Assembly (NCBI GenBank): GCA_937996795.1
Contig: CALKUH010000050.1
Span: forward strand, 5,867 to 69,866
Source: an uncultured Verrucomicrobiota bacterium
GTDB lineage: Bacteria; Verrucomicrobiota; Kiritimatiellia; CAIVKH01
Direction: 5' to 3'
Length of the DNA: 64,000 bases
Shown here: positions 22,896 to 40,579 of the stretch, piece after piece
How positions within the stretch are numbered: position 1 is the first letter of the stretch
Layout: the number at the start of each line of letters is the position of its first letter
The notes under the pieces: model-generated
Seen by the model: only the letters and a program-made list of their open reading frames with translations
Told to the model about the DNA's origin: nothing
Database searches by the model: none
Program-made: the position numbers and the translations under genes

Positions 22896-22970
22896 GGGGA
22901 AGAACTAGCCGTGCCCCGGCATCAGGTCAAGCGGCGAAGCGGAATGAGGGGTTCGGGCGATACGTACAAA

Positions 22971-24164
22971 TCATGGCGATGGCGCATTGTTCAAGTACTG
23001 GAAGCCACCGGTCACGTCCCATCGAAAAACCGCAACTGCGTCGCTTATCACGAACGACCGCCCCTCGTTATCAGGATAAATCGCTGGCAACGGACAGGTC
23101 CAGTTGAAAGCCGCAAAGGGCCAAGTATTTGAACTGATACTCTTGGTGTTGAATATGCGCTGGGTTTCCACGGCAACGGCTAACGACCCAAACATTTTGT
23201 ATGTCGAATAGTTGTACCCGCCACCGTCTGGGCATGTATTGCCGAACGGCATACCGCCGGTCGAATAATAATGATCCCTCAAATAGAGCGGACCAAAAGC
23301 ACCAAACCAATTATCTCCGGCGCGAAGGTAGAGATCGACGCCGTGTGCCAGTGAGGAGGTGATATCTTCGATCAACGCATTTGCCCTCTTTCGGGATGAA
23401 GCGATGTCAAAGGCGTCTGGTTCGGACCAGCTTTCTGCGAGCACCCCATAGAAGACGCCATCCAAAAAGTCGTCCTCGGAGACATACGACGCACTAGCCC
23501 AACGAGATTCGTTATCGGAATAGGCCTCGGCACATGTGTGACCCAACCACCAATAGGGGTTGCCTGTCGCGATCTTTTGCTCGGATTGATACGGCCATGC
23601 GTATCTCCCCGTCCATAAGAGACGATTGACGAGCGTTGTCAAACCCGCGTAACCCGAAACATGGACAAAAAGTCCCGTTGTTGGCGATTCTACGAAAAAA
23701 TTAGTTGGGAGCGATGAGGCCTGCAAGAGAGCGGCTTCATTGGTCCAATACGGAAGGTCCGCGCCGGGGTTTGAAACGAACCACGCATCAAAGTTTCCGT
23801 TTGTCGAAAGTGAGTGATTCACGAAATCAGACAAGCTTCCCCGAAGACTTGATTTGCAGTGATGCAAAAGTCCCGAAGACACGCCCCTGTAGGGCAACGG
23901 CGGGGCGCCCCCACCCTGGGCCGCCGTGCGCTCCGAAACAGCGTTTCCGCACCACGTTCCGATGTTAACGGCGTAAATATGGTCCGATATCGCGGGTCGA
24001 CCCGCCAGATTGGTTGTCGAGGCGAGCGCACATGTAGCCGACACGAAGTGCGCAACCAGCCCGAGCGCCACTCTGACGCCAACAACTTTTGATGGCAACG
24101 TCCATGCGCGAAACAGCGCCAAGATAAGGGTCATAAACGTGGATGCTTGCCGGAGATGAATCAT
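22971..24164 (-). CDS. Hypothetical secreted protein (low-GC island gene 4)
   Basis: Signal-like N-terminus (MIHLRQASTFMTLILALF...ATCALAST). Rich in W, Y and N. No recognised domain. Start uncertain. Confidence 0.5.
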   Translation of the reverse strand: MIHLRQASTFMTLILALFRAWTLPSKVVGVRVALGLVAHFVSATCALASTTNLAGRPAISDHIYAVNIGTWCGNAVSERTAAQGGGAPPLPYRGVSSGLLHHCKSSLRGSLSDFVNHSLSTNGNFDAWFVSNPGADLPYWTNEAALLQASSLPTNFFVESPTTGLFVHVSGYAGLTTLVNRLLWTGRYAWPYQSEQKIATGNPYWWLGHTCAEAYSDNESRWASASYVSEDDFLDGVFYGVLAESWSEPDAFDIASSRKRANALIEDITSSLAHGVDLYLRAGDNWFGAFGPLYLRDHYYSTGGMPFGNTCPDGGGYNYSTYKMFGSLAVAVETQRIFNTKSISSNTWPFAAFNWTCPLPAIYPDNEGRSFVISDAVAVFRWDVTGGFQYLNNAPSP

Positions 24165-24293
24165 TACGCGAGACTTCACTTTATTGGGGTGCGCGTCTGC
24201 GGCGATACCTATGTGCGTAAAACAGAAGGCCGGGAAGACAAATCTGTTATTTCGATTCATAGCCGGGATTTCTATAGATTGATCATCGTTGTC

Positions 24294-24893
24294 TTATGAT
24301 CCAGAAAGTATATTAATTACGGTCCCCGAGAAAGCATCCACGGCAACGACGGCGGCATAATCGGGACCCAAGGTGTCCGCAGGCAAAAGATATCCAAAAG
24401 TAACAACGTAGACCTCCCCCGAAAGTACCGCCGTAATCGGCGCCCCTGGTTGCAGTTCGACCGTTCCGGCAATCGCGTCACTCGCGGCGGCAATTGCTTG
24501 AGTTGACGAAATCATGGTGGCACCAACGACGGAAAATACATTCGAATCGAGCAATTGAGAGCCAGAGCGTGCCTCCAACAGCATATTGCTCCATGCGCTG
24601 CTAATCGTGAGGCCTCGGATTTCGAGGTTTGTGGAGGTTGTCGCTATCAAGCTTGTGCCCATCGTTGACACAAATTCTGCGGAGCCGCTGCCTGTCAGCT
24701 TCTTAATTTCGAGGGTAACCGCATTGGTGTTTTCGCCCGGCGATATCAATATTCCTATGGTCGCCGCAGTGTTTGTCGGAATTGAGTAAAACTTTGTGAT
24801 GCTAACTTCAATGGCAATGGCTGCGGCGGGAGCGAAACAGCAACCGAGAAGACTAATTCTCCAAGCGTGCAAGCGAATAGTTTGAGTTTTCAT
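24294..24893 (-). CDS. Hypothetical secreted Ser/Thr-rich beta-type protein (low-GC island gene 3)
   Basis: GGAGA RBS plus ATG. Signal peptide (MKTQTIRLHAWRISLLGCCFAPAAAIA). About 200 aa, rich in Thr, Ser and Ala. Confidence 0.55.
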   Translation of the reverse strand: MKTQTIRLHAWRISLLGCCFAPAAAIAIEVSITKFYSIPTNTAATIGILISPGENTNAVTLEIKKLTGSGSAEFVSTMGTSLIATTSTNLEIRGLTISSAWSNMLLEARSGSQLLDSNVFSVVGATMISSTQAIAAASDAIAGTVELQPGAPITAVLSGEVYVVTFGYLLPADTLGPDYAAVVAVDAFSGTVINILSGS

Positions 24894-24906
24894 GTTAGTC
24901 TCCATC

Positions 24907-26295
24907 TTATGGCGGCAGCGTCCGTCTGTTGGGGCCACTATGATAAAGTTGGGAGGCACTGCCAATTGGATGGTTTGAGGGTATATTTCCGCCCGAGATC
25001 GCGCTGTAGTCCTGCACGACCCCAACAACATCGTAGTTATTGTGAAAAAGGGAATCAGCCCGCGATGGCCCGACGGCCCGACCATGCGGCCGATAGGTTG
25101 TGGGTGTATGTGTATGAAAATAGGCGATTGTATAGGTCGGCCTATCTATTGGTGATGGAGTTAGATGGCTATCAGAGGGCTTGCTTCTCGGTCTTACCGA
25201 TGCGTTTGTGTAGGGGCCAACCGTTGGGCCGATATCTGTCGCGGCAAATTCGTATCGTTGCGACTGGGTGTTGACCTGAATCCAGAAACCCTCCTCCCTC
25301 CGCCCCGTGGAGGTCGTGGCGGCAAGCGTATTTGACCACGCCTGGGACGTGCGCTGTATAACCGCTGTGTTCGCAATAATTTCCTGATAGCTTGGAAACT
25401 GCGCAACGAACTCCCGTTCGGTTGAAATTGCCACGGCATTCGTAAGCCATGCCGTGACCCGAACGTTGAAGGTTCCCGCCACTGCGACCACGGTTGTTAC
25501 TGCCGACGAGGGGCCGTTGGTGATTGTATACCAATTGGTTGACGCCGCCCGACGAACCTCAAACAGGTAGTTTGTCGGCGGGAACCTCGTCGGATATGAC
25601 ATGGCCATAAAGACATTTGTCATCAGAAGTGAATTTGTCGGCGGCATTACGATTAAATCGGGAATCAGAAGCTCGTAGTACGTATCGAGATTCGCCTTAT
25701 AGACGACATCTGTAGCGATGCCTGATCCGAGATAATTGGTGATAAGCGCCCAATTCGTGGGTCCTATGTCGAGAACGTTGGTCTGCGGCGGATAGTCGCC
25801 CAATGAACCGACGAGCACCTGTAGGATGCGGTTCGTCACACCATGAGGGCTGATCCACACGTTCGTGACCGACGTGGTGAAGGAAATCTGGTTTTGCAGA
25901 TACCACAAATAGGCGCCCCATGATCCGTAGGCCTCTTTTGTCCCCCTTACCCATCCCGCGTTGTCATAGATCTTGTTGGTGTGATTTCGGGAGTATGACT
26001 GGTACACCGCAACGACCGACGTCCAGGCGGCATTCGCGCTCTCGTAACCCCAGGCGAATCCCTCGTACTCCACAGCCTTGGTCGCGTTGGTGTTGATGAA
26101 GATGTTTGTGGTCCCCACAACTTCCGTGAGCTGACTGGCCATGTTGACAAGCCGATAAGCTGAAATGTTCGGATAATTTGTGAGGACGATGGGACTGAAA
26201 ACGCGATTGGTGTGATAGAGATTGGTAGTTTGAGCCTGGGCCGCGGAAACCGTTAAGAGTCCGAGAACCATTGCGATGCGACACGCACCATTCAT
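24907..26295 (-). CDS. Hypothetical secreted Asn/Thr-rich protein (low-GC island gene 2)
   Basis: Signal peptide (MNGACRIAMVLGLLTVSAAQA). 462 aa. Its stop overlaps the start of gene 3 by 4 nt. Confidence 0.6.
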   Translation of the reverse strand: MNGACRIAMVLGLLTVSAAQAQTTNLYHTNRVFSPIVLTNYPNISAYRLVNMASQLTEVVGTTNIFINTNATKAVEYEGFAWGYESANAAWTSVVAVYQSYSRNHTNKIYDNAGWVRGTKEAYGSWGAYLWYLQNQISFTTSVTNVWISPHGVTNRILQVLVGSLGDYPPQTNVLDIGPTNWALITNYLGSGIATDVVYKANLDTYYELLIPDLIVMPPTNSLLMTNVFMAMSYPTRFPPTNYLFEVRRAASTNWYTITNGPSSAVTTVVAVAGTFNVRVTAWLTNAVAISTEREFVAQFPSYQEIIANTAVIQRTSQAWSNTLAATTSTGRREEGFWIQVNTQSQRYEFAATDIGPTVGPYTNASVRPRSKPSDSHLTPSPIDRPTYTIAYFHTHTPTTYRPHGRAVGPSRADSLFHNNYDVVGVVQDYSAISGGNIPSNHPIGSASQLYHSGPNRRTLPP

Positions 26296-28187
26296 GGGGC
26301 CGCTGGTCCTCCGACGAAAAAGTTGGTCGCCAGGGTCATAAGTTTTTCCTTCAACTCGTTCAGATCTGCCTGCGAGCCTGGCGGGTGGCTAAACGTTGGC
26401 GCGGTTGCATTGATGGCGGTCCAGTGCGCACGGATTTTTGATCGCACGATGGCAAGTGCAGTAATTCCGTCTTGCGCGTCGTCGGGATTCATTCCCGAAA
26501 CAAACCCCTCCTCAAAGTCCGTGAATCCGTCGCCGTCTGAATCAAGTCCGAGCGTAATTCCGACACCTGCGACCCGATTGCTGACGGGTATAGCGTTCAG
26601 GGCGTGTTGCCCGGCGGGCTCGCCGGGCGTGTAAACTCCGTTGTAGTCCTCATCCACAAACGCGCGAATCCAGTAGTTGGACACGGGCATTCCCGCGATG
26701 GAGTAATTCATCGGGAATGAAGCGAAATACTGCTCGCCGGTCAGGCCGCCGCTGGTGATCCACGGCAGAACCGTCTGATGCGTCGCGTCCCAACTGTTCG
26801 AGCTGGTGATGGCCACCACGTACACATCGCCCGTCGCCGCGCCTGAATAGCTGATGGTTCCCCACACCGACGGCACATCCTGCATGGCAATGTCGATGCC
26901 GCTCACGTCGCCCGTGACCAGCAGCGGGTTGCCGGCGTGTGCGCCCCATGGCTCCCACGCGTCGCGCGTGAGGTTGCCGTTCACGTCCCGGAACGCCTTG
27001 ATCCAGTAGCTTTGGTGATTGCCGATCTCGCTGTTGACGTAGGCGGCGGGGCTTGTCAGCGTCAACGACTTGGCCAGCGACCAGCTTTCGGACTCCGTGG
27101 CGAAGACGACATAAACCTTCCCGGTCTCCGGGCCGGTGTAGCTGACGCTGCCGGAGACCGTGGCCGGGTGCGAGGTCGCGGCGTTCGGGTCGGTCTGATA
27201 TACCATGAGTTCACGTCCATCGGGATAGCCGTCGCCGTCCGTGTCGGTCGTCGCGTCCGCTGCTGCGTACATGCGGACGGGGTATCCGGTCTGGACCCAG
27301 TTGTTTGTATCCACCCACACGAGGTTGGTGCCGCCGGTGGGCAGGTCTTTGGCGGCGAAGCTCCAGATTTCCGGGACCAGCTCGCTGCACATGAAGATGT
27401 CGAGGCCATTGGTGAACCCGGCCGGATAGACGATGGTCATGCTGAGGCCGTTGGTAACCTTAGCCATTTTCGAGAAATAGATATTGGTGGTGGTGCTCTC
27501 CTGCAAGAGCATCATCATCATTTCGCCCCCGCCTTCCAGTTCCGCCTGGGCGGCAAGGACTTGGGCTTTCGCGTACAGCCAGTGCTCCACGTCATCAGGT
27601 TCGATAAGGCGGGCGGTGATTTGCACGCGGGCGGGGTCAAGCATTCGCTCCCAATACGCGCGGGTGTCCGGGTGCGCACGCGTGGTGTAGAGCGCGGGCA
27701 TTTTGTCCTTGAGGTAGGCAAAGGGGTCGTAGCCGGTGGCCGGGGACAGCGTATGGATCAACTGGCCTTCGAGATTGTAGAATTCGACGGCGCGCGTGAC
27801 CGGGTTCTCCGCTATGGTGACGGGGTATACCGGCACGCTGTATTCGCGGAGGCCGACCAAGCCCTTTACGAACTCCTTCGGGAACTTTTCCGCCGTGAAG
27901 GGAATTAATCCCGGCTCGCCGGGCTGGCCTTTGAGCACGAAGTCGGCAACCGGCGGCACAATGGGCAGCAGGGCGTATTGCTGCGGGACGAACCACTGTT
28001 CGAGATCGTAGATCGTCTCGACGCGGGCGGCAAAAATGGCGTCGTATTCGGCTTTGTCGAAGTAGACCGCCTCCTCCTTTTCCGTGGCGACCGCCAGTAT
28101 CAGCGTGGCGGCGAGGACGACGACGGCGAGTCCGGAAAGCAGCCGCAGGTCAACCCGTCCGAACAGGCGTTTGAGTTTCTGCACCAT
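26292..28187 (-). CDS. Membrane-anchored surface protein with two tandem roughly 110-aa repeats and TSP type-3-like Ca-binding motifs (low-GC island gene 1)
   Basis: N-terminal TM anchor (LLSGLAVVVLAATLILAVA). DTDGDGYPDGRE and DSDGDGFTDFEEG motifs. An internal repeat (SYTGPETGKVYVVFA...YWIKAF / SYSGAATGDVYVVAI...YWIRAF). Confidence 0.6.
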   Translation of the reverse strand: MVQKLKRLFGRVDLRLLSGLAVVVLAATLILAVATEKEEAVYFDKAEYDAIFAARVETIYDLEQWFVPQQYALLPIVPPVADFVLKGQPGEPGLIPFTAEKFPKEFVKGLVGLREYSVPVYPVTIAENPVTRAVEFYNLEGQLIHTLSPATGYDPFAYLKDKMPALYTTRAHPDTRAYWERMLDPARVQITARLIEPDDVEHWLYAKAQVLAAQAELEGGGEMMMMLLQESTTTNIYFSKMAKVTNGLSMTIVYPAGFTNGLDIFMCSELVPEIWSFAAKDLPTGGTNLVWVDTNNWVQTGYPVRMYAAADATTDTDGDGYPDGRELMVYQTDPNAATSHPATVSGSVSYTGPETGKVYVVFATESESWSLAKSLTLTSPAAYVNSEIGNHQSYWIKAFRDVNGNLTRDAWEPWGAHAGNPLLVTGDVSGIDIAMQDVPSVWGTISYSGAATGDVYVVAITSSNSWDATHQTVLPWITSGGLTGEQYFASFPMNYSIAGMPVSNYWIRAFVDEDYNGVYTPGEPAGQHALNAIPVSNRVAGVGITLGLDSDGDGFTDFEEGFVSGMNPDDAQDGITALAIVRSKIRAHWTAINATAPTFSHPPGSQADLNELKEKLMTLATNFFVGGPAAP

Positions 28188-28293
28188 CTTCTTTGCTCAC
28201 CGGTGTTCGCGATCCGTTCACAGCGGCCCAATGATTGAAATCCTCACTATGGTTTGATCCGGTGTCAAGTCTGTTATCCAGTAATGCTGATGC

Positions 28294-28590
28294 GTGCCCA
28301 ATGCCGATACATACCTGACCGTCGTGGCAACTGTTGTACGTCTACTCCAAGAAGAGCGCACAAAAAAGAAATTTTCCATGAATGCAGTGGCCGTGCGCGC
28401 CGGCTTGTCCCAACAGATGGTTAGCTACGTTGAGCGCGGAATGCGGAATCCAACGCTCGAAACACTTTTGCGAATTTCGAATGCCCTCGACGTTGATCTT
28501 GCGTTGATTTTGAGGCGCGCCGTCGCCGCCCGCGCTACTCCATCGGGCCGCCGGGCGTCGTGTCGTGCGGCTGCAGGTCCTCGGGGATGA
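28294..28590 (+). CDS. XRE-family helix-turn-helix transcriptional regulator
   Basis: VRLLQEERTKKKFSMNAVAVRAGLSQQMVSYVERGMRNPTLETLLRISNALDVDL matches the Cro/C1 HTH. The low-GC 5' half lies in the island, and the 3' end overlaps the convergent TPR lipoprotein gene. Confidence 0.7.
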   Translation: MPNADTYLTVVATVVRLLQEERTKKKFSMNAVAVRAGLSQQMVSYVERGMRNPTLETLLRISNALDVDLALILRRAVAARATPSGRRASCRAAAGPRG

Positions 28591-29705: not shown

Positions 29706-30005
29706 TCAGGGCGCGACGCGCAACTGGTCGATGACACTTTCGATGCCCGGCGTGCCGCGCACGACGCCGAGTACGCGCATGCGCTCCGCCTCGCTGCGGA
29801 CCGTGCCGCGCACGCGGGCCTGCGTGCCCTGCACATCCACGGCGTACATCTTGCTCCGCGTGACGGAATCCGTCGCGAGCCGTTCTTCAATCAGGTCGCG
29901 CGTTTCGCCGTCCGTCCCGGTCGCTTCCGGCTCCGCGGGCATGGTGACGCAACCCGCGAGGCCGAGGACCGCCACGGCCGCACATCGCTTGAGAACTGTC
30001 ATCAT
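29706..30005 (-). CDS. BON-domain lipoprotein
   Basis: [21 protein letters not shown] lipobox. ...[31 protein letters not shown] is BON-like. Lies 5 nt upstream of the TPR lipoprotein. Confidence 0.65.
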
Positions 30006-30088
30006 GTGAAGACCCCTCCTTCGTTCCGCCGCTGGACAATGCCTCGCGGCGCATTATATTCCCCCCATTCACTTCAGGAGGAACCCAC

Positions 30089-30715
30089 ATGCCGCATACC
30101 CTACCCGCCCTGCCGTATCCTGCCAACAGCCTGGAGCCGTTCATCGATGAACAGACCATGCTGATCCATCACGGCAAGCACCACGCCGCGTACGTCAACA
30201 ACCTCAACGCGGCGCTCGAAAAATACCCGGACCTGCAGGCGAAGTCCATCGAAGCGTTGATCGCCGACCTCAACGCCGTGCCGGCGGACATCCGCGGCGC
30301 GGTGCGCAACAACGGCGGCGGCCACTGGAACCACACCTTCTTCTGGAACCTGCTGAAGAAGAATGACGGCGCGAAGCCGTCCGGCGCGCTCGGCGCGGCG
30401 ATCGACAAGACCTTCGGCGGCCTCGATGCGTTCAAGGAGCAGTTCGCGAAGGCCGGCGCCACGCGCTTCGGCTCCGGCTGGGCGTGGCTGTGCGTCAAGG
30501 CGGACAAGTCGCTCTGCATCTGCTCGACGCCGAATCAGGACAACCCGCTGATGGCGGGCGTCGCGGAGTGCCCCGGCACGCCGATCCTCGGCCTCGATGT
30601 GTGGGAGCACGCGTATTACCTCAAGTACCAGAACCGCCGCCCCGACTACATCGCGGCCTTCTGGAACGTGGTGAACTGGAGCGCGGTGGAAGCGTTGTAC
30701 GCGAAAGCGGTCTGA
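30089..30715 (+). CDS. sodA/sodB: Superoxide dismutase (Fe/Mn family)
   Basis: [40 protein letters not shown] plus DVWEHAYY metal ligands. Confidence 0.95.
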
Positions 30716-30810: not shown

Positions 30811-33792
30811 TCAGGCTTGGGTCGGGTGTTCCTCGCGGTGCAGGGCGCGGCGGACGGCGTCGAGCAGGTCGTCCGCGCGATAGGGCTTGGGCAGGATGCC
30901 GGAGAAACCGGCGCTCTTGAACTGGGCGAGCACTTCGTCGGGCGCATAGCCGCTGGAGACGATGGCGTTCAGGCCCGGATCGCGCGCGCGCAGGTGCCGC
31001 AGCGCCTCGCGGCCGCCCATGCCGCCGGGCACGGTGATGTCGAGGATGGCGAGATCGACGCGCCGCCCCGCGCGGAGCTCCTCGTCGAGCAGGCGGACGG
31101 CCTCTTCGCCGCGGTCCGCGACGAGCACCTCGTAGCCGGCCCTGCCCAGGGCGCGCTGCGCGAGGCCGAGGATGGGCTTTTCGTCGTCCATCACCAGGAT
31201 GCGGCCCTGCCCGGTCGCGGCGCGCGGCGCGGCGGCGGCTTCCGCCGGGAGCTCGGCGGTTTCCGATGCAGCCGGCAGGTAGAACGTAAAGGCGGCGCCG
31301 TTCCCGGGTTCCGACGTCACCTCGATCAGGCCGCCGTGTTTCTGCACGATGGAAAAGCACATCGTGAGGCCGAGTCCGCTGCCTTTTTTCTTGGTCGTGA
31401 AATACGGGTCGAAGATGCGGCCGATGAGGCGGTCCGGGATGCCGGTGCCGGTGTCGGACACGCGGACCTGCACATAGCGGCCGGGCGCGAGGCGCGGCAC
31501 CTCGTTTGCGCCGACGTGCCGGTTGGCGGTCTCGATCGTGATGACGCCGCCCGCGGGCATGGCCTGGTCGGCGTTGATGATCAGGTTCTGGATGACCTGT
31601 GTGATCTGGCCGCTGTCGATTTCCGCCCGCCACGTGTCCGGGTCGATCTTGTACACGCAGCGCGAGGCGGACCCGCGCACGGTGAAGCCGGCGGCCTCGC
31701 GGACCACGGCGCCGACGTCGTGCAGTTTCTTGATCGGCGCGCCGCCCTTCGCGAAGGTCAGCAACTGGTGCGTGAGGTCGCGGGCGCGGATGGCCGCGCG
31801 CTCCGCGTCCTGCAGCGCCTCGGCCAGCTCCGCGGGCGGCGTGCCGGGCTCGCGCGCGGCGGAGATGTTGCCGAGGATGGCGGTCAGGATGTTGTTGAAG
31901 TCGTGGGCGAGGCCGCCGGCGAGCAGGCCGAGCGACTCCAGCTTCTGCGTGCGCATGCGCTCCTCTTCGATGCGCCGCCGCTCGGAGAGGTCCTGCACGA
32001 TGGCGATCCCGCTGGTGATCGCGCCCGCCGCGTCGAACAGCGGGGCCGCGCGCAGGCTGATCCACGTGTCCTCCTCCAGCGCGATGAACCCGCGCGAGCC
32101 TTCGTGGTAGCCCTCGCCGCCATCGAGCGCGGCGCGCAGGGTCGGCAGGATGGCCGCGTCCGCCAGTTCTTCCAGCGGGGCGCCCGCGAGGTCGCGCCGG
32201 CTCTTGCGCAGCAGCGCGGCGAAGCGGTCGTTGAATTCCGTGATGCGCAGTTCGCGGTCGTAGTGGAAGACGCCGGCGGGCGCATACTCGAAGAGCAGCC
32301 GGTAGCGTTCGCCCGCCTCGCGGTGCTGCTGCATCTCGGTGCGCAGCGCGCGGTTCGCCTCCGCGAGCTCGCGGGTGCGCTGGTGGACGCGCTGTTCGAG
32401 GTCGGCGCTCAGCGCGCGCTGTTCGCGCTCGGCGGCGGCGAGGCGCAGGGCGCTTTCCCACAGCCGGTGATGCCGGGTGAAGAAATCGAGGATCAACAGC
32501 ACCAGCAGCGCGCCGAGGCCCAGGCCGATCAGCCGCCAGCGCGCGATGGACTGCAGATAGTCGTCGGCGGCGATGTCGAGGCCCAGCGCGAGGCGCACGC
32601 GCCCGTCGCCCTCCTCGCGCAGCGCGGGCACGGTGGCCGACACCCAGCGCCCCCAGCGGTCGGTGAACGGGCCGAAGGTGTAGGGCTTGGCGGTGTTGAA
32701 GAAGGTGTAGTCCTGCGGGGAGATGTCGCCTTCGTAGAGGTCGCCGGGCCGGACACGGGCCGACGGGGTCCTCGCTTCCGACGAGGCGTAGAACATGAAA
32801 CGGCCGCCGCGCAGGCCATAGAGGTAGATCTGCTGCACATCGGGAAACGCGAGGCGCGCGCGCGTCAGCATGGATTCGACTTCATGCACCACGGGGTGCC
32901 GCTCGTCCGTGGGGCTGGCGCGAAGGGCCGAGAGCAACGAGGGATCGAGCAGGTTGGCCACGCTGGAGGCGCGCTCGAGGATGGAGGTGCGCAGCATGCG
33001 TCCCGCGAGCCGCCCGAGCGCATCCGTCCCGATCCACGTCGCGAGAAACACGCCGGCGAGTGCACTGATCGTGGTCTTCAGACGCAGGGGCGCTTCGTGC
33101 TGGAGCGCGTGGCCCGTGCGCGGCAGGTGGGCCATGGAAATCGTCCACAGGGCCGCGGCGAGGCCGGCGGCGATCACGGCGCGCACGACTTCCATCGGCA
33201 GGCCGGTCCCGTGCAGCCACGCCTGCGTGTGGAGGACCTGCGACGGGCCGAGCGCGGAGGGGCCGGTGAAGAGGCCCGCGGCGATGGCGTAGAGCAACAG
33301 GAAGAAGGCGGCAGCCTTGAGCCCGCCCCGGCCGGGTCCCTCGCTATCGCGCGCGGCGCGCCGGAAGGCGAGGCTCGCGAGAAACGCGCCGGGCAGGGCC
33401 AGCCCGTAGCGCACGGCCGCCTCCCACTCCGCCGGGCCCCCGCGGGCGGCCAGCACCACGGTGAGGACGAGCAGGCCGGGGAACAGCCCGCGGCGCCCCG
33501 GCAGCGGGCCGTATGCCGCGCATCCGCGGAGGCCGAAATCGAGCAGGATCGCGAACGAGACCGCGAGCAGGCCGATGCGGAGGATCGGCGGGGCGACGGC
33601 CTCCCACGCCGGCGCGGCGCCCGCCCACCACTCATACAAGCCGTGCAGGGCGGCGAACAGGGACAGCCGTGGCCACGGCAGGCGCGAGGCGCCGTGGCGG
33701 CGGGGCGTCTGCGCGAAGGCCGCGAGGATCAGGAAGGCCGATCCGTAGAGAAAATAGATGAAATCCATGTGCTGTTGGAACGTCGCACTCAT
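30811..33792 (-). CDS. Hybrid sensor histidine kinase/response regulator (multi-TM N-terminal sensor, PAS, HisKA, HATPase_c, REC)
   Basis: About 8 N-terminal TM helices plus a periplasmic segment. H-box LAGGLAHDFNNIL, G-boxes DTGTGIP and GSGLGL. The C-terminal receiver has the phospho-acceptor Asp in LAILDITVPGG. Confidence 0.88.
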   Translation of the reverse strand: MSATFQQHMDFIYFLYGSAFLILAAFAQTPRRHGASRLPWPRLSLFAALHGLYEWWAGAAPAWEAVAPPILRIGLLAVSFAILLDFGLRGCAAYGPLPGRRGLFPGLLVLTVVLAARGGPAEWEAAVRYGLALPGAFLASLAFRRAARDSEGPGRGGLKAAAFFLLLYAIAAGLFTGPSALGPSQVLHTQAWLHGTGLPMEVVRAVIAAGLAAALWTISMAHLPRTGHALQHEAPLRLKTTISALAGVFLATWIGTDALGRLAGRMLRTSILERASSVANLLDPSLLSALRASPTDERHPVVHEVESMLTRARLAFPDVQQIYLYGLRGGRFMFYASSEARTPSARVRPGDLYEGDISPQDYTFFNTAKPYTFGPFTDRWGRWVSATVPALREEGDGRVRLALGLDIAADDYLQSIARWRLIGLGLGALLVLLILDFFTRHHRLWESALRLAAAEREQRALSADLEQRVHQRTRELAEANRALRTEMQQHREAGERYRLLFEYAPAGVFHYDRELRITEFNDRFAALLRKSRRDLAGAPLEELADAAILPTLRAALDGGEGYHEGSRGFIALEEDTWISLRAAPLFDAAGAITSGIAIVQDLSERRRIEEERMRTQKLESLGLLAGGLAHDFNNILTAILGNISAAREPGTPPAELAEALQDAERAAIRARDLTHQLLTFAKGGAPIKKLHDVGAVVREAAGFTVRGSASRCVYKIDPDTWRAEIDSGQITQVIQNLIINADQAMPAGGVITIETANRHVGANEVPRLAPGRYVQVRVSDTGTGIPDRLIGRIFDPYFTTKKKGSGLGLTMCFSIVQKHGGLIEVTSEPGNGAAFTFYLPAASETAELPAEAAAAPRAATGQGRILVMDDEKPILGLAQRALGRAGYEVLVADRGEEAVRLLDEELRAGRRVDLAILDITVPGGMGGREALRHLRARDPGLNAIVSSGYAPDEVLAQFKSAGFSGILPKPYRADDLLDAVRRALHREEHPTQA

Positions 33793-36785
33793 GAGGCTTG
33801 CGGATGGGAGGGATGCAGCGTCTGGCCCATGAGGTGCAGGAGCGCGGGCGGAGGATAGGGCTTGGCGAGGAATCCGTCCAGCGCCGCGAGCCGCTCGCGC
33901 CAGCGTTCGCGTTCTTGGGTGTAGCCGCTGGTCAGGAGGATCTTCAGCGCCGGGTGCCGCGCCCGGGCCTCCTCCGCCAAGTCGAGCCCGTTGCCGTCCG
34001 GCAGCACGACATCCGAAAACATCAGCGCAAACGGGATCTCCGGCGCAAGCAGCAGCGCGCGCGCCTCCGCGACCGTGCCCACGGCGGTGACCCGGTAGTG
34101 GTTGCGATGCAGGATCCGCGTGGTGAGTTCGCGCACGCCCGTCTCATCCTCGACCACCAGAATGTGTTCGCCGCGCCCCTCCAGCCCCCGCGCCACCGTG
34201 GTGGCGGCGGGGTCCGGCGACGCCGGAAGCGCCCCGGTCTCCTCCGTCGGCAGGTAGATGCAAAAGGTGCTGCCCTCGCCAGGCGCGCTGTGCACCTCGA
34301 TGAACCCCTCGTGCTGGCGCACGATGCCGTACACCACCGGAAGACCGAGCCCGGTGCCCCTGCCCGGTTCCTTTGTGGTGAAGAACGGCTCGAACAACTG
34401 CTCCCGCACCTCGGGGGTCATGCCGACGCCGGTATCCTGCACGCACAGGCGGACGAAGCGGCCCGGCCGCGCGCCGGGCACGGGCGGCAGGGCCCCGTCC
34501 TCCAGGCACACCACGCTCGTGGCGAAACGCAGCAGGCCCCCGCCGGGCATCGCGTCGCGGGCGTTGATCGACAGGTTGACGAGGATCTGTTCGAGCTGGC
34601 CGGCATCCGCGCGGATGGGGGGCAGCTGCTCATCGAAGTCCGTTTCGATGCGAATGTTTTCCCCCAGCAGCCGGTGCAGCAACTTGGCCGCGCCCCTGAC
34701 GATTTCGTTGAGCGCGAGGGACTCCACATGCATCTTCTGGCGCCGCCCGAAGGCCAGCAGCTGGCGCGTGAGCGCGGCGGCGCGCTGGGCGGCCCGGTCG
34801 ATTTCCAACACGTCGCTCCGACGCGGGTCGCCCTCCGCGATTTCGGAGAGCAGGATCGCGCTGAACCCGGTGATGGCCTGGAGCAGGTTGTTGAAATCGT
34901 GCGCGATGCCCCCCGCCATTCGCCCGATGCTCTCCATCTTCTGGGCCTGCCGGAGCTGCAACTCCAGCGTCTTTTGCTCGGTGACGTCCTGTTTGATCGC
35001 GATAAAATGCGTCAATTTCCCCGCGCTGTCCCGCACCGGCGTGATGGTCATTTCCTCCGTGACCAGCGACCCGTTCTTGCGGCGGTTCGTGATCTCGCCG
35101 CGCCAGACCAGCCCGGCGGTGATCGTCTTCCACATCGTGTCGTAGAACGCGCGCGCGTGGACGCCGGAGGCGAGCAGGGACGGCGTCTGGCCGACGACCT
35201 CGTGTCGCGCATAGCCCGTGTGGCGGCAGAACGCATCGTTCACCCACAGGATGCGGCCCTGCGCGTTGGTGATGACGATGCTGTTGGCGGCGGCGCCCAG
35301 CGCCGTGCGCTGGAGGCGCGTTTCCTCCTCCGCCCCCTCGCGCCGGATCGCTTGGGCGATCAACTGCGCGGCGAGGCGGAGGATTTCCTTCTCCGGCGCG
35401 GTCCAGCGACGCGGCACGCGGCCATCCGCGAAACAGATGAAGCCCCACCACGCCCGGTCCGCGACAATGGGCGCGAGGTGCACCGAGAGGATGCCGCGTT
35501 CCGCCAGCATCCCGCGCGCGGGCTCCGGCAATTCTTCAACGACGCCTCCAACCGTTTCCCCTTTCGCAAGCCGGTCGCACCAGTCTTCGAGGCCCGCGAG
35601 GGACAGGTTGCAGGAAAACGGGCGCCCGGGTTCCGCGAGCGGCGCGTGCGTGGGCGCGTTCCATTCGCAGCGCAGGGTGCTTTCCTGCGCGCCGCCCCCG
35701 GCGTCCACCTGTTGGAATAACGCGACGCGGCTGACCTCGGCCGCAAGGCCGAGCTCGCGGAGGAACGGATCGATGTGGCGGGTCCAGCCCTCGTCGCGCA
35801 TCAGGCGCTCCGCCGCCGTCGCGGCGGCCGCAAGCAGGGCGTCGCGACGCCGTGTGCCCTGCGCGAAATCGGCGTTCATCCGCTCCTGCAGCTTGGCGTG
35901 GATCGCGGTGGTGATCGCGGGCAGCAGGTTGTGCAGGATATTCCGGTCCCGGTCCGTCAGCGGCGGATCGTCCGCATACGCCTGCACGGCGACCACCCCG
36001 AGCGCCGCATTGCCGTAGCGCAGCGGGCCGCCGAGCCACTGGCGCGGGCGCGCGCCCAGGACCTCCGCCGCGCCGCTCGCCTCAAGCGCCGCGAGCCCGG
36101 CCTCGTCGAGCAGCACGGTCTCTCGGCCGTTCATCGCATATTCGGTGAGCCCGCGCCCCGGCCGCTTGCACGGCGGCGCCGGGTCCGCGCGGTCCACCCA
36201 GCATGGAAAATACAGGGCGTCGTGCTCCCGGCTGTAGAGGGCGATGTAGAAGTGGCGGGCGGGCATCACGGCGGCGAGGGCCTCGTGGATCTCGCCGCCC
36301 AGCGCCTCGACCGAGGTGGCGGCAGGCGCGGCTCGCGCAATCCGCTGTTCCGCCGCGCGGATGGCATCGCCGAGCGCGCGCTCCCGCAGGTCGCGGGCGG
36401 TGATGACGACCGTGCGCCTGCCCTCGAACACGAAATCGTGCGGGGCGCACTCCAGCGGCACCGCGGACCCGTCCCGATGCAGCGCCCGGAAGTGGATCGC
36501 GTAGCGCGCCTCCGGATGGCGGAGGTAATCGGTGAGTTCCGCGGCGGCGCGGTCACGGTCCTCCGGGTGCACCAAGTCGAGCACGTTCAGCCCCCGCAGC
36601 GCGTCGGGGTCGTGCCCCAGCACCGCGCGCACGGCCTCGCTGGCCTGCAACAGCGAGCCGTGTTCATCAAGGACCACCTGCACGTCAAAGCCGTTCCGCC
36701 ACGCGGCGGCTCCCAGCCGGTCCATCGTGTCCGCGCCGCCGATGTCCCGGCGGCCCTGCCCTGTGCGTTCACCCGAAATCGTCAT
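33789..36785 (-). CDS. Cytoplasmic hybrid sensor histidine kinase (PAS-GAF-GAF-PAS-HisKA-HATPase_c-REC)
   Basis: H-box MAGGIAHDFNNLL, G-boxes DTGVGM and GTGLGL, receiver with FSDVVLPDG. A 4-nt overlap (ATGA) with the upstream kinase. Confidence 0.88.
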   Translation of the reverse strand: MTISGERTGQGRRDIGGADTMDRLGAAAWRNGFDVQVVLDEHGSLLQASEAVRAVLGHDPDALRGLNVLDLVHPEDRDRAAAELTDYLRHPEARYAIHFRALHRDGSAVPLECAPHDFVFEGRRTVVITARDLRERALGDAIRAAEQRIARAAPAATSVEALGGEIHEALAAVMPARHFYIALYSREHDALYFPCWVDRADPAPPCKRPGRGLTEYAMNGRETVLLDEAGLAALEASGAAEVLGARPRQWLGGPLRYGNAALGVVAVQAYADDPPLTDRDRNILHNLLPAITTAIHAKLQERMNADFAQGTRRRDALLAAAATAAERLMRDEGWTRHIDPFLRELGLAAEVSRVALFQQVDAGGGAQESTLRCEWNAPTHAPLAEPGRPFSCNLSLAGLEDWCDRLAKGETVGGVVEELPEPARGMLAERGILSVHLAPIVADRAWWGFICFADGRVPRRWTAPEKEILRLAAQLIAQAIRREGAEEETRLQRTALGAAANSIVITNAQGRILWVNDAFCRHTGYARHEVVGQTPSLLASGVHARAFYDTMWKTITAGLVWRGEITNRRKNGSLVTEEMTITPVRDSAGKLTHFIAIKQDVTEQKTLELQLRQAQKMESIGRMAGGIAHDFNNLLQAITGFSAILLSEIAEGDPRRSDVLEIDRAAQRAAALTRQLLAFGRRQKMHVESLALNEIVRGAAKLLHRLLGENIRIETDFDEQLPPIRADAGQLEQILVNLSINARDAMPGGGLLRFATSVVCLEDGALPPVPGARPGRFVRLCVQDTGVGMTPEVREQLFEPFFTTKEPGRGTGLGLPVVYGIVRQHEGFIEVHSAPGEGSTFCIYLPTEETGALPASPDPAATTVARGLEGRGEHILVVEDETGVRELTTRILHRNHYRVTAVGTVAEARALLLAPEIPFALMFSDVVLPDGNGLDLAEEARARHPALKILLTSGYTQERERWRERLAALDGFLAKPYPPPALLHLMGQTLHPSHPQAS

Positions 36786-36925
36786 GGCGCCATCAATTGA
36801 TGGCGAGTGTACCCCGCGCGAGGCGCATCATCTACTGCATTTCTGCGGGCGGCGCGGGCGGGACGCCCGGGCGCGCATTCACGCTGGCGGGCGGGGCGGC
36901 GCTTCGCCATACTAAAAAGCTGCCC

Positions 36926-39643
36926 ATGTCATTCCGGTTCACACACGTTTATCGCCTTGCGCTGGGGGCGCTCGCCCTCGCGCTGGCGTCCGTGCTTTTC
37001 CTGTGGGGACCCTCCCCGCGCGAGGCGGCGCTGCTGGCGGGCGCGGCCTTCGGCGCGGGCCTGGTGCTGCTGGTGGCGCAGGAGTTCCAGCAACGCCGCC
37101 GGCTGCGCCGGTTTACGCAGGCGATCCGCCAGGTCCGTGGACAGGCGGATTTCGGCGCGCGGGTGCCGGAGGCGGATGATCCCGAGCTGGCCGAGCTCGC
37201 GGGGGAAATCAACGGCCTGCTCGGCACCCTCCAGCGCGTGCATGAGAAGCTGCTGGGCATGAACGCGGAACTTGAGCAGCGCGTGGCCGAGCGCACGGCG
37301 GAGGTCGAGGAGAGCAAGGCGACGCTGGCGGCGGACGCCGCGCGCCGCATCGAGGCCGAGCGCGCCACGGCGGAGCGCGAGCGCGTGTACCGCACGCTGC
37401 ACGAATTGTCCCCCACCGGCATCCTGCTGGAGTCCGAGGACGGCGTGATCCTCGACGCGAACCAGGCCATCTGCGACGCGCTGGGCTTCACGCGTGAGGA
37501 GCTGGTGGGCCGCAATGTGCGCTCGCTCCCGCCGCCGGGCGACCTCCCGCGCGTGGAGCGCGATCTCGAGTCTCTGCTCGAGGGCCACACGCTCTTCCAC
37601 GAGGTGCGCAACATCCGCAAGGACGGGCGCGAGTGTTCCATGGAGCTGCGCGAGCGCGCCATCACGCTGCCGGACGGACAGCGCCGCATCATCGTCGCCG
37701 CGAACGACATCACCGCGCGCAAGGCCGCGGAGGCGCGGCTGCGCGAAAGCGAGCACCGCTACCACACGCTGTTCAACACGCTGATCACCGGGTTCGGCCT
37801 GCACGAGATGGTCTATGACGCGGACGGGCGCGCGGTGGACTACATCTTCCTCGACGTAAACCCCGCGTTCACCGCGATGACCGGCCGCCGCCGCGACGAG
37901 GTCGTGGGCCGCCGCGTCAGCGAGGTGTTTCCCGGCACGGAACAATCGTGGATCGAGCGCTACGGCGAGGTCGCGCGCACCGGGCGGGCCATCGCATTCG
38001 ACAACTATTCCAGCGCCCTGCAAAAGCACTTTTCCGTCATTGCCTACAGCCCGCAGCGCGGCCAGTTCGCGGTGAATTTCATCGACATCACCGAGCAGCG
38101 CCGCGCGGAAAGCCAGCTCAAGCTGCAGGCCACGGCGCTGGAGTCGTCCGCCAACGGCATCATGATCGTGAACCGCGCGGGCGTCATCACCTGGGTCAAC
38201 CGCGCCTTCACCCAGCTCACCGGCTACGCCCGCACGGAGATCGAGGGGCGGACGCCGAATGTCCTCAAATCCGGGCGGCACGGTCCCGCGTTCTATGCAG
38301 AGTTGTGGACGACGGTCACCGAGGGCCGCATGTGGCGCGGGGAGCTGGTCAACCGCCGCAAGGACGGCTCGCTGTACCTGGAGGAGATGACGATCACGCC
38401 GGTGCTGGACGAACAGGGACGCGCGGATTATTTCGTCGCGATCAAGCAGGACATCACCGAGCGGCGCGACCTGCAGCAGCAGTTGTTCCAGGCGCAGAAG
38501 ATGGAGGTCATCGGGCGCCTCGCCGGCGGCATCGCGCATGACTTCAACAACCTGTTGCAGGCCATCACCGGCTTCAGCCACCTGCTGCTCGAAAGCCTCG
38601 ACACGCACAGCCCGCACCGCGCCGATGTGCAGGAAATCGAGCGCGCCGCGCGCCGCGCGTCCGACCTGACGCGCCAGCTGCTCGCCTTCAGCCGGCGCCA
38701 GATGATCGAGACGCGGGCGGTGGATCTCAACGCGCTGGTCGAAGGCACCGAGAAGATGCTCCAGCGCCTGATCGGCGAGGACATCGAGCTCGTGCTCGAC
38801 CTGGAGAAGGACCTCGAACCCGTCCGCGCCGACGCCGGCCAGATCGAGCAGGTGCTCGTCAACCTCACCGTCAACGCGCGCGACGCGATGCCGACGGGCG
38901 GGCGGCTCACCGTCAGCACCAGCAGCATCGTCCTGCTCAAGGAGGACACGCTGTTCAAGCCGGACGCCCGCCATGGGCGCTTCGCCGTGCTCTCCATCAC
39001 CGACACCGGTTTCGGCATGACGCCGGATGTGCAGGAACACATTTTTGAGCCGTTCTTCAGCACCAAGGGCCCCGGGCGCGGCACCGGGCTCGGGCTCTCC
39101 GTGGTGTACGGCATCATCCAGCAGCACGAGGGCATGATCCGCGTGTACAGCGAGGTCGGGCAGGGCTCCACCTTCCGCATCTACCTGCCGATCACCTCGG
39201 AGCAAAGCCGCGAGGCGGATGTGCCCGCCGAGGCTTCGGACAAGGTGCTGGCGCGCGGCCGCGGGGAGCGCATCCTGCTCGTCGAGGACGAGGCCGGCGT
39301 CCGCGATTTCGCCCTCAGCGCCCTCCGGCAATATGGCTACGACCCGATCCCGGCATCCAGCTACGCCGAGGCCGAGACGGTCTTTGCGGAGCATGAGGGC
39401 CGGTTCGATCTCCTCTTCACCGATGTGGTCCTGACCGACCAGACGGGGCTCGACCTCGCCGCCACGCTGCGCCGGAAGCGCCCCGACCTGCGCCTGCTCT
39501 TCACCAGCGGATACATGGACGAAAAGTCGCGCTGGCCGGTCATCCGCGACCGGGGCTATCCCTTCCTGCAAAAGCCCTATCCGCTCGACAGCCTGCTGCG
39601 CACGCTGCGCGCCGTGCTCGACCACCCCCCGCCCGGGGCGTAG
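36926..39643 (+). CDS. Hybrid sensor histidine kinase (2 TM plus HAMP, three PAS domains, HisKA, HATPase_c, REC)
   Basis: Start MSFRFTHVYRLALGALALALAS. H-box LAGGIAHDFNNLL, G-boxes DTGFGM and GTGLGL, receiver with FTDVVLTDQ. Diverges from the two minus-strand kinases. Confidence 0.88.
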   Translation: MSFRFTHVYRLALGALALALASVLFLWGPSPREAALLAGAAFGAGLVLLVAQEFQQRRRLRRFTQAIRQVRGQADFGARVPEADDPELAELAGEINGLLGTLQRVHEKLLGMNAELEQRVAERTAEVEESKATLAADAARRIEAERATAERERVYRTLHELSPTGILLESEDGVILDANQAICDALGFTREELVGRNVRSLPPPGDLPRVERDLESLLEGHTLFHEVRNIRKDGRECSMELRERAITLPDGQRRIIVAANDITARKAAEARLRESEHRYHTLFNTLITGFGLHEMVYDADGRAVDYIFLDVNPAFTAMTGRRRDEVVGRRVSEVFPGTEQSWIERYGEVARTGRAIAFDNYSSALQKHFSVIAYSPQRGQFAVNFIDITEQRRAESQLKLQATALESSANGIMIVNRAGVITWVNRAFTQLTGYARTEIEGRTPNVLKSGRHGPAFYAELWTTVTEGRMWRGELVNRRKDGSLYLEEMTITPVLDEQGRADYFVAIKQDITERRDLQQQLFQAQKMEVIGRLAGGIAHDFNNLLQAITGFSHLLLESLDTHSPHRADVQEIERAARRASDLTRQLLAFSRRQMIETRAVDLNALVEGTEKMLQRLIGEDIELVLDLEKDLEPVRADAGQIEQVLVNLTVNARDAMPTGGRLTVSTSSIVLLKEDTLFKPDARHGRFAVLSITDTGFGMTPDVQEHIFEPFFSTKGPGRGTGLGLSVVYGIIQQHEGMIRVYSEVGQGSTFRIYLPITSEQSREADVPAEASDKVLARGRGERILLVEDEAGVRDFALSALRQYGYDPIPASSYAEAETVFAEHEGRFDLLFTDVVLTDQTGLDLAATLRRKRPDLRLLFTSGYMDEKSRWPVIRDRGYPFLQKPYPLDSLLRTLRAVLDHPPPGA

Positions 39644-39727
39644 CCGCGCGGGGGCGGTCCGCGCCGCGGCTTGACCGTTCCGTCGTGCGGGTGTTGAATG
39701 GCTTCAGGCCCCAAGCGGAGAACTGTC

Positions 39728-40579
39728 ATGAATACCTGCCGTTTCCTGTCGATCCTGGTCCTCGGGTTTGGGTTGGTGGCCCCCGCCACGGCGGAGCGCC
39801 TCGTCATCAAAGGGTCCAACACCTTCGGCGAGGAGCTCGGCCCTCGCCTCATTGAGGACTTCAAGAAGACGCACGCGGAGTGGGAGATCGAACTCGAGTC
39901 GCGCAGCACCGGCCACGGCATCCAGGCCCTGCTCGACGGCGCGTGCGACATCGCCCCCGCCTCCCGCTCGCTTAATGATGACGAAATCCGCCTCGCGAAA
40001 TCCCGGGGCCTCACGCTGCGGGTGCACACCATCGGCTACTACGGCATCGCCGTGATCGTGCACCGCGACAACCCGGTGGGCTCGCTCGCCGACCACCAGG
40101 TGCGCGACATCTTCACCGGCGCCCTCAAGAACTGGAGCGCCGTGCGCGGGCCCGACGCGCCGATCGTTACGCATATTTCCGTGCCCGAGGCCGGCACGTA
40201 CCTCGGCTTCCAAGAACTGGCGATGGACCGGCGCCCGTACCGCGCCGACGCCGTCGCGCATGAGAGCTATGCGGATATCGCCGCCGCGGTCGCGAAGGAC
40301 CCGAACGCAATCGGGTATGTGTCGATGTCGCTGGCGGCCGGCCCGTCGGTGCGCGCCGTGAAGATCAACGGCGTGCCCGCCACGCCGATTTCCGTGTCGG
40401 ACGACCAGTATCCCTACGCGCGCCTGTTGCGTTTCTACACGGACAAGAACCGCGAATCGCTCGCCGCCCGCGAATTCATCCGCTACGTCCGCTCGCGTCA
40501 GGGCCAGAACGTGCTGGAGGACGCCGGCTTCGTCCGCCGCTTCCAGCGCCACCTCTCCTTCGGCATGGAAACGCAGTAA
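39728..40579 (+). CDS. PstS-family (PBP-like_2) periplasmic phosphate or oxyanion-binding protein, orphan
   Basis: Signal peptide (MNTCRFLSILVLGFGLVAPATA). IKGSNTFGEELGPRLIEDF and TGHGIQALLDGACDIAPASR resemble PstS/PhoT substrate-binding proteins. No adjacent pstCAB. Confidence 0.7.
   Translation: MNTCRFLSILVLGFGLVAPATAERLVIKGSNTFGEELGPRLIEDFKKTHAEWEIELESRSTGHGIQALLDGACDIAPASRSLNDDEIRLAKSRGLTLRVHTIGYYGIAVIVHRDNPVGSLADHQVRDIFTGALKNWSAVRGPDAPIVTHISVPEAGTYLGFQELAMDRRPYRADAVAHESYADIAAAVAKDPNAIGYVSMSLAAGPSVRAVKINGVPATPISVSDDQYPYARLLRFYTDKNRESLAAREFIRYVRSRQGQNVLEDAGFVRRFQRHLSFGMETQ

Follow-up and report, generated by a model that had tools for sequence, protein, structure and literature searches.

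Introduction

In the AioX-AioS-AioR, TorT-TorS and LuxP-LuxQ systems, a periplasmic binding protein without a transporter is encoded beside a sensor kinase, and AioS, TorS and LuxQ each have a folded periplasmic domain on which the solute-binding protein (SBP) docks. A PstS-type protein is also the ultimate periplasmic ligand binder for PhoR of E. coli, which works with PstSCAB-PhoU; the transmembrane (TM) hairpin of PhoR has only a tiny periplasmic loop, and its PAS domain lies in the cytoplasm. Hybrid histidine kinases (HKs) that end in a receiver (REC) domain, the HK-REC or HKRR proteins, outnumber HKRRHPt proteins two to one, and in most species no gene for an HK, a response regulator or an Hpt protein typically lies next to theirs (PMC4558063). 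Components of both kinds, orphan hybrid kinases and an S-type PstS-like SBP, lie side by side in a stretch of DNA from an uncultured Kiritimatiellia bacterium (contig CALKUH010000050.1). In this stretch, 64 kb in all and called the window here, three large hybrid kinases (K1, K2 and K3) adjoin the gene for a secreted PstS-like binding protein (PBP).

A first-pass annotation of the window proposed that PBP is the periplasmic ligand sensor of K3 and that the three kinases might make up a multi-kinase phosphorelay. Our own reading is plainer, and we think its chances about even: the array is a lineage-specific set (Kiritimatiellia-type, within the Planctomycetes-Verrucomicrobia-Chlamydiae or PVC bacteria) of HK-REC kinases that sense independently beside a superoxide dismutase gene, with no dedicated PstS-driven relay. 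The array is mostly ordinary, and an SBP co-sensor role for PBP is a possible, minority reading.

Results

The kinase array

K1 (30811-33792, minus strand, 993 aa) and K2 (33789-36785, minus strand, 998 aa) overlap, the stop codon of K2 sharing ATGA with the start of K1 (the junction reads GCC TCA TGA / ATG AGT). K3 (36926-39643, plus strand, 905 aa) is divergent from the pair and is followed by the gene for PBP (39728-40579, plus strand, 283 aa). The upstream neighbor of the array is an Fe/Mn superoxide dismutase gene, sod (30089-30715, plus strand), which is conserved in relatives. The arrangement of two overlapping minus-strand kinases and a divergent third, all with C-terminal receivers, stands as first annotated, coordinates included. 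The K3 start at ATG 36926 agrees with orthologues of 898-923 aa; a start at TTG 36797, giving an ORF of 948 aa, has no orthologue support and was rejected.

In Pfam searches K1, K2 and K3 all have HisKA, HATPase_c and C-terminal Response_reg domains, and none of the three has lost the H-box His or the Asp, Thr/Ser and Lys of the receiver, as is proper to HK-REC hybrids. K2 and K3 are paralogues: 53% of residues agree across the C-terminal 514 aa, DHp helix 1 (AGGIAHDFNNLLQAITGFS) is the same in both, and they probably have the same phosphotransfer specificity. The identity of K1 to either one is 33-35%. The K3 core is closest to the DHp-CA structure of CckA (5idj, E=4e-57) and to the PRK13557/CckA models, and every kinase equivalog cut-off is missed by a wide margin.

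Do these kinases form a relay? A multistep phosphorelay has an Hpt domain and a terminal response regulator, and neither is present in the window or adjoins the array in related loci. A receiver-domain hidden Markov model run over all six frames of the window found no receiver beyond those of K1, K2 and K3, and Pfam scans of about 55 other window ORFs found no Hpt, response regulator or ChpT-like protein, which bears out the earlier statement that the 64 kb hold no Hpt or stand-alone response regulator. The only response regulator in the related loci is an NtrC-type gene with its own kinase, 2-4 kb off on the other strand. Because HK-REC hybrids usually have no such neighbor gene (PMC4558063), the missing Hpt and response regulator are not remarkable. 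What does count against the proposed multi-kinase phosphorelay is that K1 and K2 are facultative in relatives (see below), so that a three-kinase relay is not a conserved unit. The intact catalytic residues suggest that each kinase would autophosphorylate its H-box His and pass the phosphate to its own receiver; from there it would move on by way of an Hpt protein and a response regulator whose genes lie elsewhere, the usual situation among HK-REC hybrids.

The sensory regions

K3 consists of a TM hairpin (36944-37087), a HAMP-like segment (37097-37234), two PAS domains, a flavin-type PAS domain (38123-38500), HisKA, HATPase_c and REC (39272-39607). The hydrophobic helices lie at aa 7-31 and 32-54, with about 7 residues between them (GPSPREA), and K3 does have only the two closely spaced TM helices first ascribed to it. 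Among seven orthologues the periplasmic loop measures 7-21 aa, with no conserved residue or length; the hairpin and loop are unconserved and the HAMP-like segment is conserved. A metagenome scan with an alignment of the K3 N-terminus returned two weak PAS matches, the patterns being too degenerate. The topology of two TM helices and a loop of less than about 25 aa fits that of the intramembrane-sensing histidine kinases, but K3 falls outside that class in having the HAMP-like segment and three PAS domains.

The third PAS domain of K3, which abuts the DHp domain, matches PAS-A of MmoS (3EWK, E=4e-34), PAS1 of NifL (2GJ3, E=1e-20) and the PAS domain of Aer (8DIK). It has Pro at the position of the LOV photo-cysteine, and judged by its sequence would be a flavin PAS of the NifL/MmoS type. 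K2 has no TM helix; its order is PAS, GAF region, flavin-type PAS (aa ~490-610, 34956-35318), HisKA, HATPase_c and REC, and it matches the NifL model (E=4e-47). Because of the flavin PAS next to DHp and the neighboring superoxide dismutase gene, K3 and K2 are probably cytoplasmic redox sensors, with flavin binding and redox sensing as predicted properties. K3 would be the ancestral member of the array, tethered by a poorly conserved helical hairpin and reading cytoplasmic signals through its three PAS domains. Since it combines a membrane hairpin with a NifL/MmoS-type flavin PAS beside the phosphorylation helix, its logic may be that of Aer or NifL, namely that of a membrane-tethered redox sensor. 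K2 would be a soluble version of K3, with the same flavin PAS and phosphorylation helix and with GAF inputs in addition.

K1 has a sensor module of another kind. Pfam, hydropathy, AlphaFold2 (AF2) and Foldseek together give the order eight TM helices, sCache-like extracytoplasmic domain, TM helix, coiled coil, PAS, HisKA, HATPase_c and REC. The N-terminal module spans aa 1-440 (32473-33792, minus strand), with the sCache-like part at aa 282-408 (32569-32949). Hydropathy and AF2 agree on about eight TM helices, an extracytoplasmic domain of about 130 aa and one more TM helix, and in the AF2 model built from 30 homologues (pLDDT 91.8, pTM 0.88) a long helix connects the eight TM helices to an α/β domain, which the ninth TM helix follows. 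In Foldseek the α/β domain matches the Cache/PDC sensor domains of WalK, Tlp3 and KinD. Pfam-A has no model for the N-terminal ~440-460 residues of K1 or of its homologues, and permissive scans of K1 and four orthologues came back empty. The module is nevertheless widespread: it was found in 3727 cluster representatives, 1627 of them at E<=1e-10, and in the best 150 of the 3727 it is N-terminal, in signaling proteins of 359-2006 aa. K1 would then be an unrelated addition to the array, sensing an extracellular ligand through its 8-TM and sCache-like module.

The binding protein

PBP has a Sec-type signal peptide (39728-39793) and matches PBP_like_2 in Pfam (E=6e-30). Its start is probably ATG 39728 rather than ATG 39698, because a GGAG lies 6 nt upstream of the former, a 99%-identical protein (P0001) is 283 aa long, and ATG 39698 overlaps the -10 box of the promoter-like element described below. 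The AF2 model (pLDDT 88) has as its best Foldseek matches 4GD5, 4Q8R, 1TWY and 4JWO (TM-score 0.78), and a profile alignment to 4GD5 gives E=3e-44; the predicted fold is thus that of the Class II, S-type PstS proteins. Against the NCBIfam PstS-family model TIGR02136, PBP scores 166.1 bits, below the cut-off of 206.6.

What might PBP bind? The phosphate ligands of PBP-1 of C. perfringens are S11, T12, S13, S41, S59, R125, S129, G130 and T131 (PMC5381212). As far as the alignment of the sequences goes, PBP keeps or conservatively replaces seven of the nine (S30, N31, T32, T61, S79, G156 and T157) and falls short of the full PstS ligand set, having Ser151 for Arg125 and Ala155 for Ser129. These two changes lie in the ligand loop I150-T157 (40175-40198, plus strand), precisely where AF2 confidence drops. 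S79, which stands at the Asp56 position, and T32, R232 and D85 vary little or not at all among 33 family sequences, as is expected of S-type phosphate-binding proteins. In SphX, Pro stands at the position of the ligand Arg and phosphate is still bound, with lower affinity; SphX has a Thr-Arg-Asp triad (PMC13614923), to which T32, R232 and D85 of PBP are equivalent. Since the triad is kept while the ligand Arg and one ligand Ser are lost, much as SphX is without the Arg, the probable ligand of PBP is phosphate or a similar oxyanion, bound at reduced affinity.

One might think that the loss of Arg and Ser proves a non-phosphate ligand. We rejected that inference, as SphX binds phosphate without the same Arg and as the two sites are not constant in sister clades without kinase linkage either: L021, L053 and L054 have G for the S, and the sister clade of L015, L020, L028 and L045 has P for the R, the very substitution found in SphX.

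The PBP family, whose members are about 280 aa long, comprises at least 1193 clusters, mostly of Verrucomicrobiota and Kiritimatiellia. Eighty genome loci of the family were fetched with ±10 kb of flanking DNA, and 78 of the 80 are without an ABC ATPase in that span, the other two having an ABC-ATPase-like ORF. No ORF of the window carries both motifs of the ABC-ATPase pair, and pstC, pstA and pstB are not co-encoded with PBP in the window. It is correct, therefore, that K3 is followed in the window by a secreted PstS-like protein without pstCAB. The orphan status of PBP was also taken as a clue to a partnership with the kinase, and here we disagree: because transporter-less loci are the rule in the family, it is uninformative about the kinase. 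The unlinked family members adjoin MFS genes (6 loci, two with a 4-bp overlap), SBF/ACR3-type transporter genes (4), a T2SS-F gene (10), a Ppx/CHAD gene (1) or unrelated genes, which hints that SBPs of this family may partner with secondary transporters.

These data bear on a further explanation, in which PBP is simply a transport or scavenging protein that delivers phosphate or a related anion to a remote pstCAB or other importer, or buffers the periplasm, and has no connection with the kinases. The PstS fold and the retention of most phosphate ligands speak for it, as do the MFS, SBF and Ppx/CHAD neighbors of family members, these being linked to phosphate or oxyanion handling, and the presence in one related locus, L086, of a Na/Pi-cotransporter-PhoU gene just upstream of K3 and PBP. 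We nonetheless consider it unlikely, given the score below the PstS cut-off, the lost ligand Arg and Ser, and the absence of ABC partners beside almost all family members, because of which hundreds of genomes would have to encode a transporter at a distance if the role were a classical Pst one. In the reading we favor, PBP would be an exported protein with a promoter to itself, one of many transporter-less S-type phosphate-binding proteins that make up a large family in PVC bacteria.

Conservation of the array in relatives

The closest relatives of the window are metagenome-assembled genomes labeled Kiritimatiellia or Verrucomicrobiota. The adjacency of K3 and PBP was assessed from the PBP side in 5 genome and 8 metagenome loci, representing about 11 lineages: a K3-type kinase lies immediately upstream of PBP in 5 of the 80 family genome loci, and K3 is followed by PBP in 8 of 8 further metagenome loci of the closest relatives. 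The ancestral layout is TPR, BON, sod, (K2), (K1), K3, PBP, queE, queC, with PMT2 and the NtrC-type two-component genes downstream on the opposite strand. K1 is found in 6 of the ~11 lineages and K2 in 3, and K1 is absent from at least four lineages that retain K3 and PBP (L084, L003, L086 and L002). The flanks are also variable. The window and the near-identical L094 have the K2-K1 block in inverted orientation and a GH39 gene in place of queE-queC; inverted repeats were sought at the ends of this block, with only GC-rich noise as the outcome. In L086 the upstream side is replaced, and a gene for a Na/Pi cotransporter fused to PhoU domains (L086 5298-7043) lies directly upstream of K3-PBP. 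This gene is the only phosphate-related neighbor of the kinase-linked pair. K3-PBP may be taken as the invariant core of the array, because the pair persists while K1, K2 and both flanks vary.

How much does this constancy say about function? The relatives are fairly close to one another: identities are 80-94% for SOD, 46-72% for K3 and 49-68% for PBP, and the functionally unrelated neighbors sod, queE and queC are conserved almost as well as K3-PBP. Every K3-linked PBP is without the ligand Arg and Ser, and almost all unlinked members keep R..SGT. In a neighbor-joining tree, the K3-linked PBPs make up one monophyletic clade, so that the adjacency and the ligand-site change amount to a single evolutionary event. 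The perfect correlation of motif with adjacency was for the same reason dropped as statistical support. The place of PBP after K3 is most likely an inherited gene order in one clade.

A promoter-like element upstream of PBP

An element at 39671-39699 (plus strand), between K3 and PBP, was found by alignment, a consensus promoter scan having missed it. It consists of TTGACC, a 17-nt spacer with an invariant CGGGTG, and TTGAAT, and it is conserved though the surrounding intergenic DNA is not. It aligns in 7 of 7 loci, and the motif is present in 16 of 18 K3-linked loci versus 1 of 77 others. The element is specific to the clade, lying just upstream of the PBP gene in L001-L004, L081-L089 and L093-L095, with a -10-like hexamer that varies as TTGAAT/TCTAAT/TTCACT. 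It occurs once in the window, where 0.01 occurrences are expected by chance. Its CGGGTG may serve as an extended -10 or as the site of a regulator. K3 and PBP are never less than 54 bp apart, and in relatives queE begins at -4 to +53 bp after PBP; a search for a terminator between K3 and PBP found none. With an element of its own, a distance of at least 54 bp from K3, and tighter spacing to queE, PBP looks, from these sequence features, transcriptionally independent of K3.

Other features of the window

The window has a GC content of about 0.68, and Rfam and tRNA scans of it were empty. A small BON-domain ORF (29709-30053, minus strand) lies between a TPR gene and sod, and holds the same place in relatives. 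A low-GC block of about 5.6 kb (22900-28500; 0.52-0.60 versus ~0.68), which was probably acquired horizontally, separates two TPR genes that adjoin each other in related loci. It has four minus-strand ORFs (22971-24260, 24294-25085, 24907-26295 and 26292-28187), whose sole Pfam match is one TSP3 repeat. The segment 45178-63975 is a polysaccharide-utilization neighborhood unrelated to the kinases. It encodes a GH1 protein, a beta-1,2-glucan phosphorylase-like SOGP, an F5/8 type C protein, a sugar ABC permease and SBP without an ATPase gene, a glucoamylase-like protein, a PEP-CTERM protein, a LacI regulator and a TSP3/CBM48 protein.

Discussion

Does PBP report to the kinases? The simplest form of the idea is that of the first-pass annotation, in which the minimal periplasmic loop of K3 is itself the docking site of PBP, and PBP is the ligand sensor of this kinase. 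Part of that proposal has stood up, as the adjacency is invariant, the two genes being immediate neighbors on the same strand in all relatives, and the ligand site of PBP has changed. The docking step itself has fared poorly. The loop of 7-21 aa is unconserved in the seven orthologues while PBP is 49-68% identical; adjacency and ligand-site change trace to a single clade; PBP has its own promoter-like element; and K3 has ample cytoplasmic sensors. Moreover, VirA, AioS, BctE and ChiS, which are tabulated as SBP-dependent kinases in PMC8050422, all have a folded extracytoplasmic domain according to that table. SBP-dependent kinases are recognized by an SBP gene beside the kinase gene without transporter genes, which is the case here, and by an extracytoplasmic docking domain, which K3 lacks; K1 has an sCache-like domain but is missing from several K3-PBP loci. 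We therefore regard direct docking on the K3 loop as highly improbable.

A more elaborate possibility is three-component sensing, in which oxyanion-loaded PBP would dock on the sCache-like domain of K1, or on another membrane protein in contact with the K3 hairpin, and so modulate kinase activity in the manner of AioX-AioS and TorT-TorS, with K3 and K2 adding a redox input and all sharing a common Hpt. For this scheme there is the conserved K3-PBP adjacency, the contiguity of K1, K3 and PBP in six lineages, the altered ligand site, and the want of a transporter nearby; the Cache-type extracytoplasmic domain of K1 is confidently predicted, and PMC8050422, in its treatment of SBP-dependent kinases, names that type for several of them. 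The obstacles are that K1 is absent from at least the four K3-PBP lineages listed above, that the linked clade is one evolutionary event, and that a promoter-like element of its own precedes PBP, which is closely followed by queE. We judge three-component sensing to be rather unlikely. The corresponding evolutionary scenario would have a PstS-derived PBP, bereft of the ligand Arg and Ser, recruited as a transporter-independent extracellular sensor, fixed beside K3 in one Kiritimatiellia clade, and signaling to a hybrid kinase without a periplasmic domain of its own through the sCache domain of K1 or the hairpin and HAMP-like segment of K3, so that the array would join periplasmic oxyanion status with flavin redox sensing. 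That scenario strikes us as doubtful.

Our preferred reading, of independent kinases with no PstS-driven relay, has its own difficulties, and several observations weigh against it. K3-PBP is unbroken in 13 loci, even though independent rearrangements have altered both flanks, as the window and L086 show. The binding-site change in the linked clade coincides with the position beside K3. SBPs that stimulate sensor kinases tend to be encoded beside signaling rather than transporter genes, a rule stated in PMC8050422 and one that three-component sensing would suit. The conserved HAMP-like segment directly after TM2 of K3 would be well placed for transmembrane signaling, and so also lends something to direct docking. 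Lastly, the remote Hpt and response regulator, through which the kinases would act, are an assumption.

What would follow if PBP does signal to the kinases? It would be the first PstS-type histidine-kinase co-sensor to work without a Pst transporter, and an example from the little-studied Kiritimatiellia. A more general lesson is that little can be read from an orphan binding protein beside a kinase if its whole family is without transporters and the pairing goes back to one clade. Two components of the array deserve attention in their own right as under-described, the large PVC family of transporter-less S-type PstS-like proteins, and the widespread 8-TM and Cache N-terminal sensor module, for which there is no Pfam model.

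Comparison with known systems

How does the array compare with its nearest described counterparts? The kinases share with CckA (which works with ChpT and CtrA) and with the PRK13557-type HK-REC kinases the HisKA domain with its AHDFNN motif, the HATPase domain, the C-terminal receiver and the absence of an Hpt domain. They differ from CckA in scoring 263-417 bits against equivalog cut-offs of 1000 bits, in having unlike sensor regions, and in the lack of a ChpT-like gene near the array. In both K3 and K2 the PAS next to DHp is a close match to the FAD-binding PAS domains of MmoS and NifL, and K3 is built like Aer in having a membrane hairpin together with a HAMP segment and a flavin-type PAS. 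The domain order and output of NifL, MmoS and Aer are, however, unlike those of the array, where K3 and K2 are hybrid kinases and the flavin PAS is a predicted one. PhoR resembles K3 in its hairpin, tiny loop and cytoplasmic PAS, but there is no PstCAB, PhoU or PhoB here, and K3 is a hybrid with three PAS domains that scores 98 bits against the PhoR model, for which the cut-off is 334.

PBP shares with SphX and PBP-1 the fold, a Ser for the low-barrier Asp, and the Thr/Ser-Arg-Asp triad. It is closest in logic to SphX, which is likewise without the ligand Arg and yet binds phosphate. The differences are that PBP has Ser and not Pro in place of the Arg, and in addition Ala for a ligand Ser, that its ligand is a predicted one, and that SphX belongs to a Pst-type uptake system and the Pho regulon.

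Among the binding protein-dependent kinases, TorS and LuxQ are hybrids like K3, and AioX comes from the phosphate/phosphonate-type SBP lineage and is comparable in this respect to PBP. K3 has no counterpart of the folded docking domain of AioS, TorS and LuxQ. In contrast to the AioX, TorT and LuxP systems, the array has no linked response regulator or Hpt, and PBP, which abuts queE-queC in relatives, has a promoter-like element to itself. If PBP does signal, the system would by analogy be like AioX-AioS, TorT-TorS and LuxP-LuxQ, and conceptually like PhoR-PstSCAB, while departing from each in a defining feature, be it the docking domain on K3, the Pst transporter or the linked regulator.

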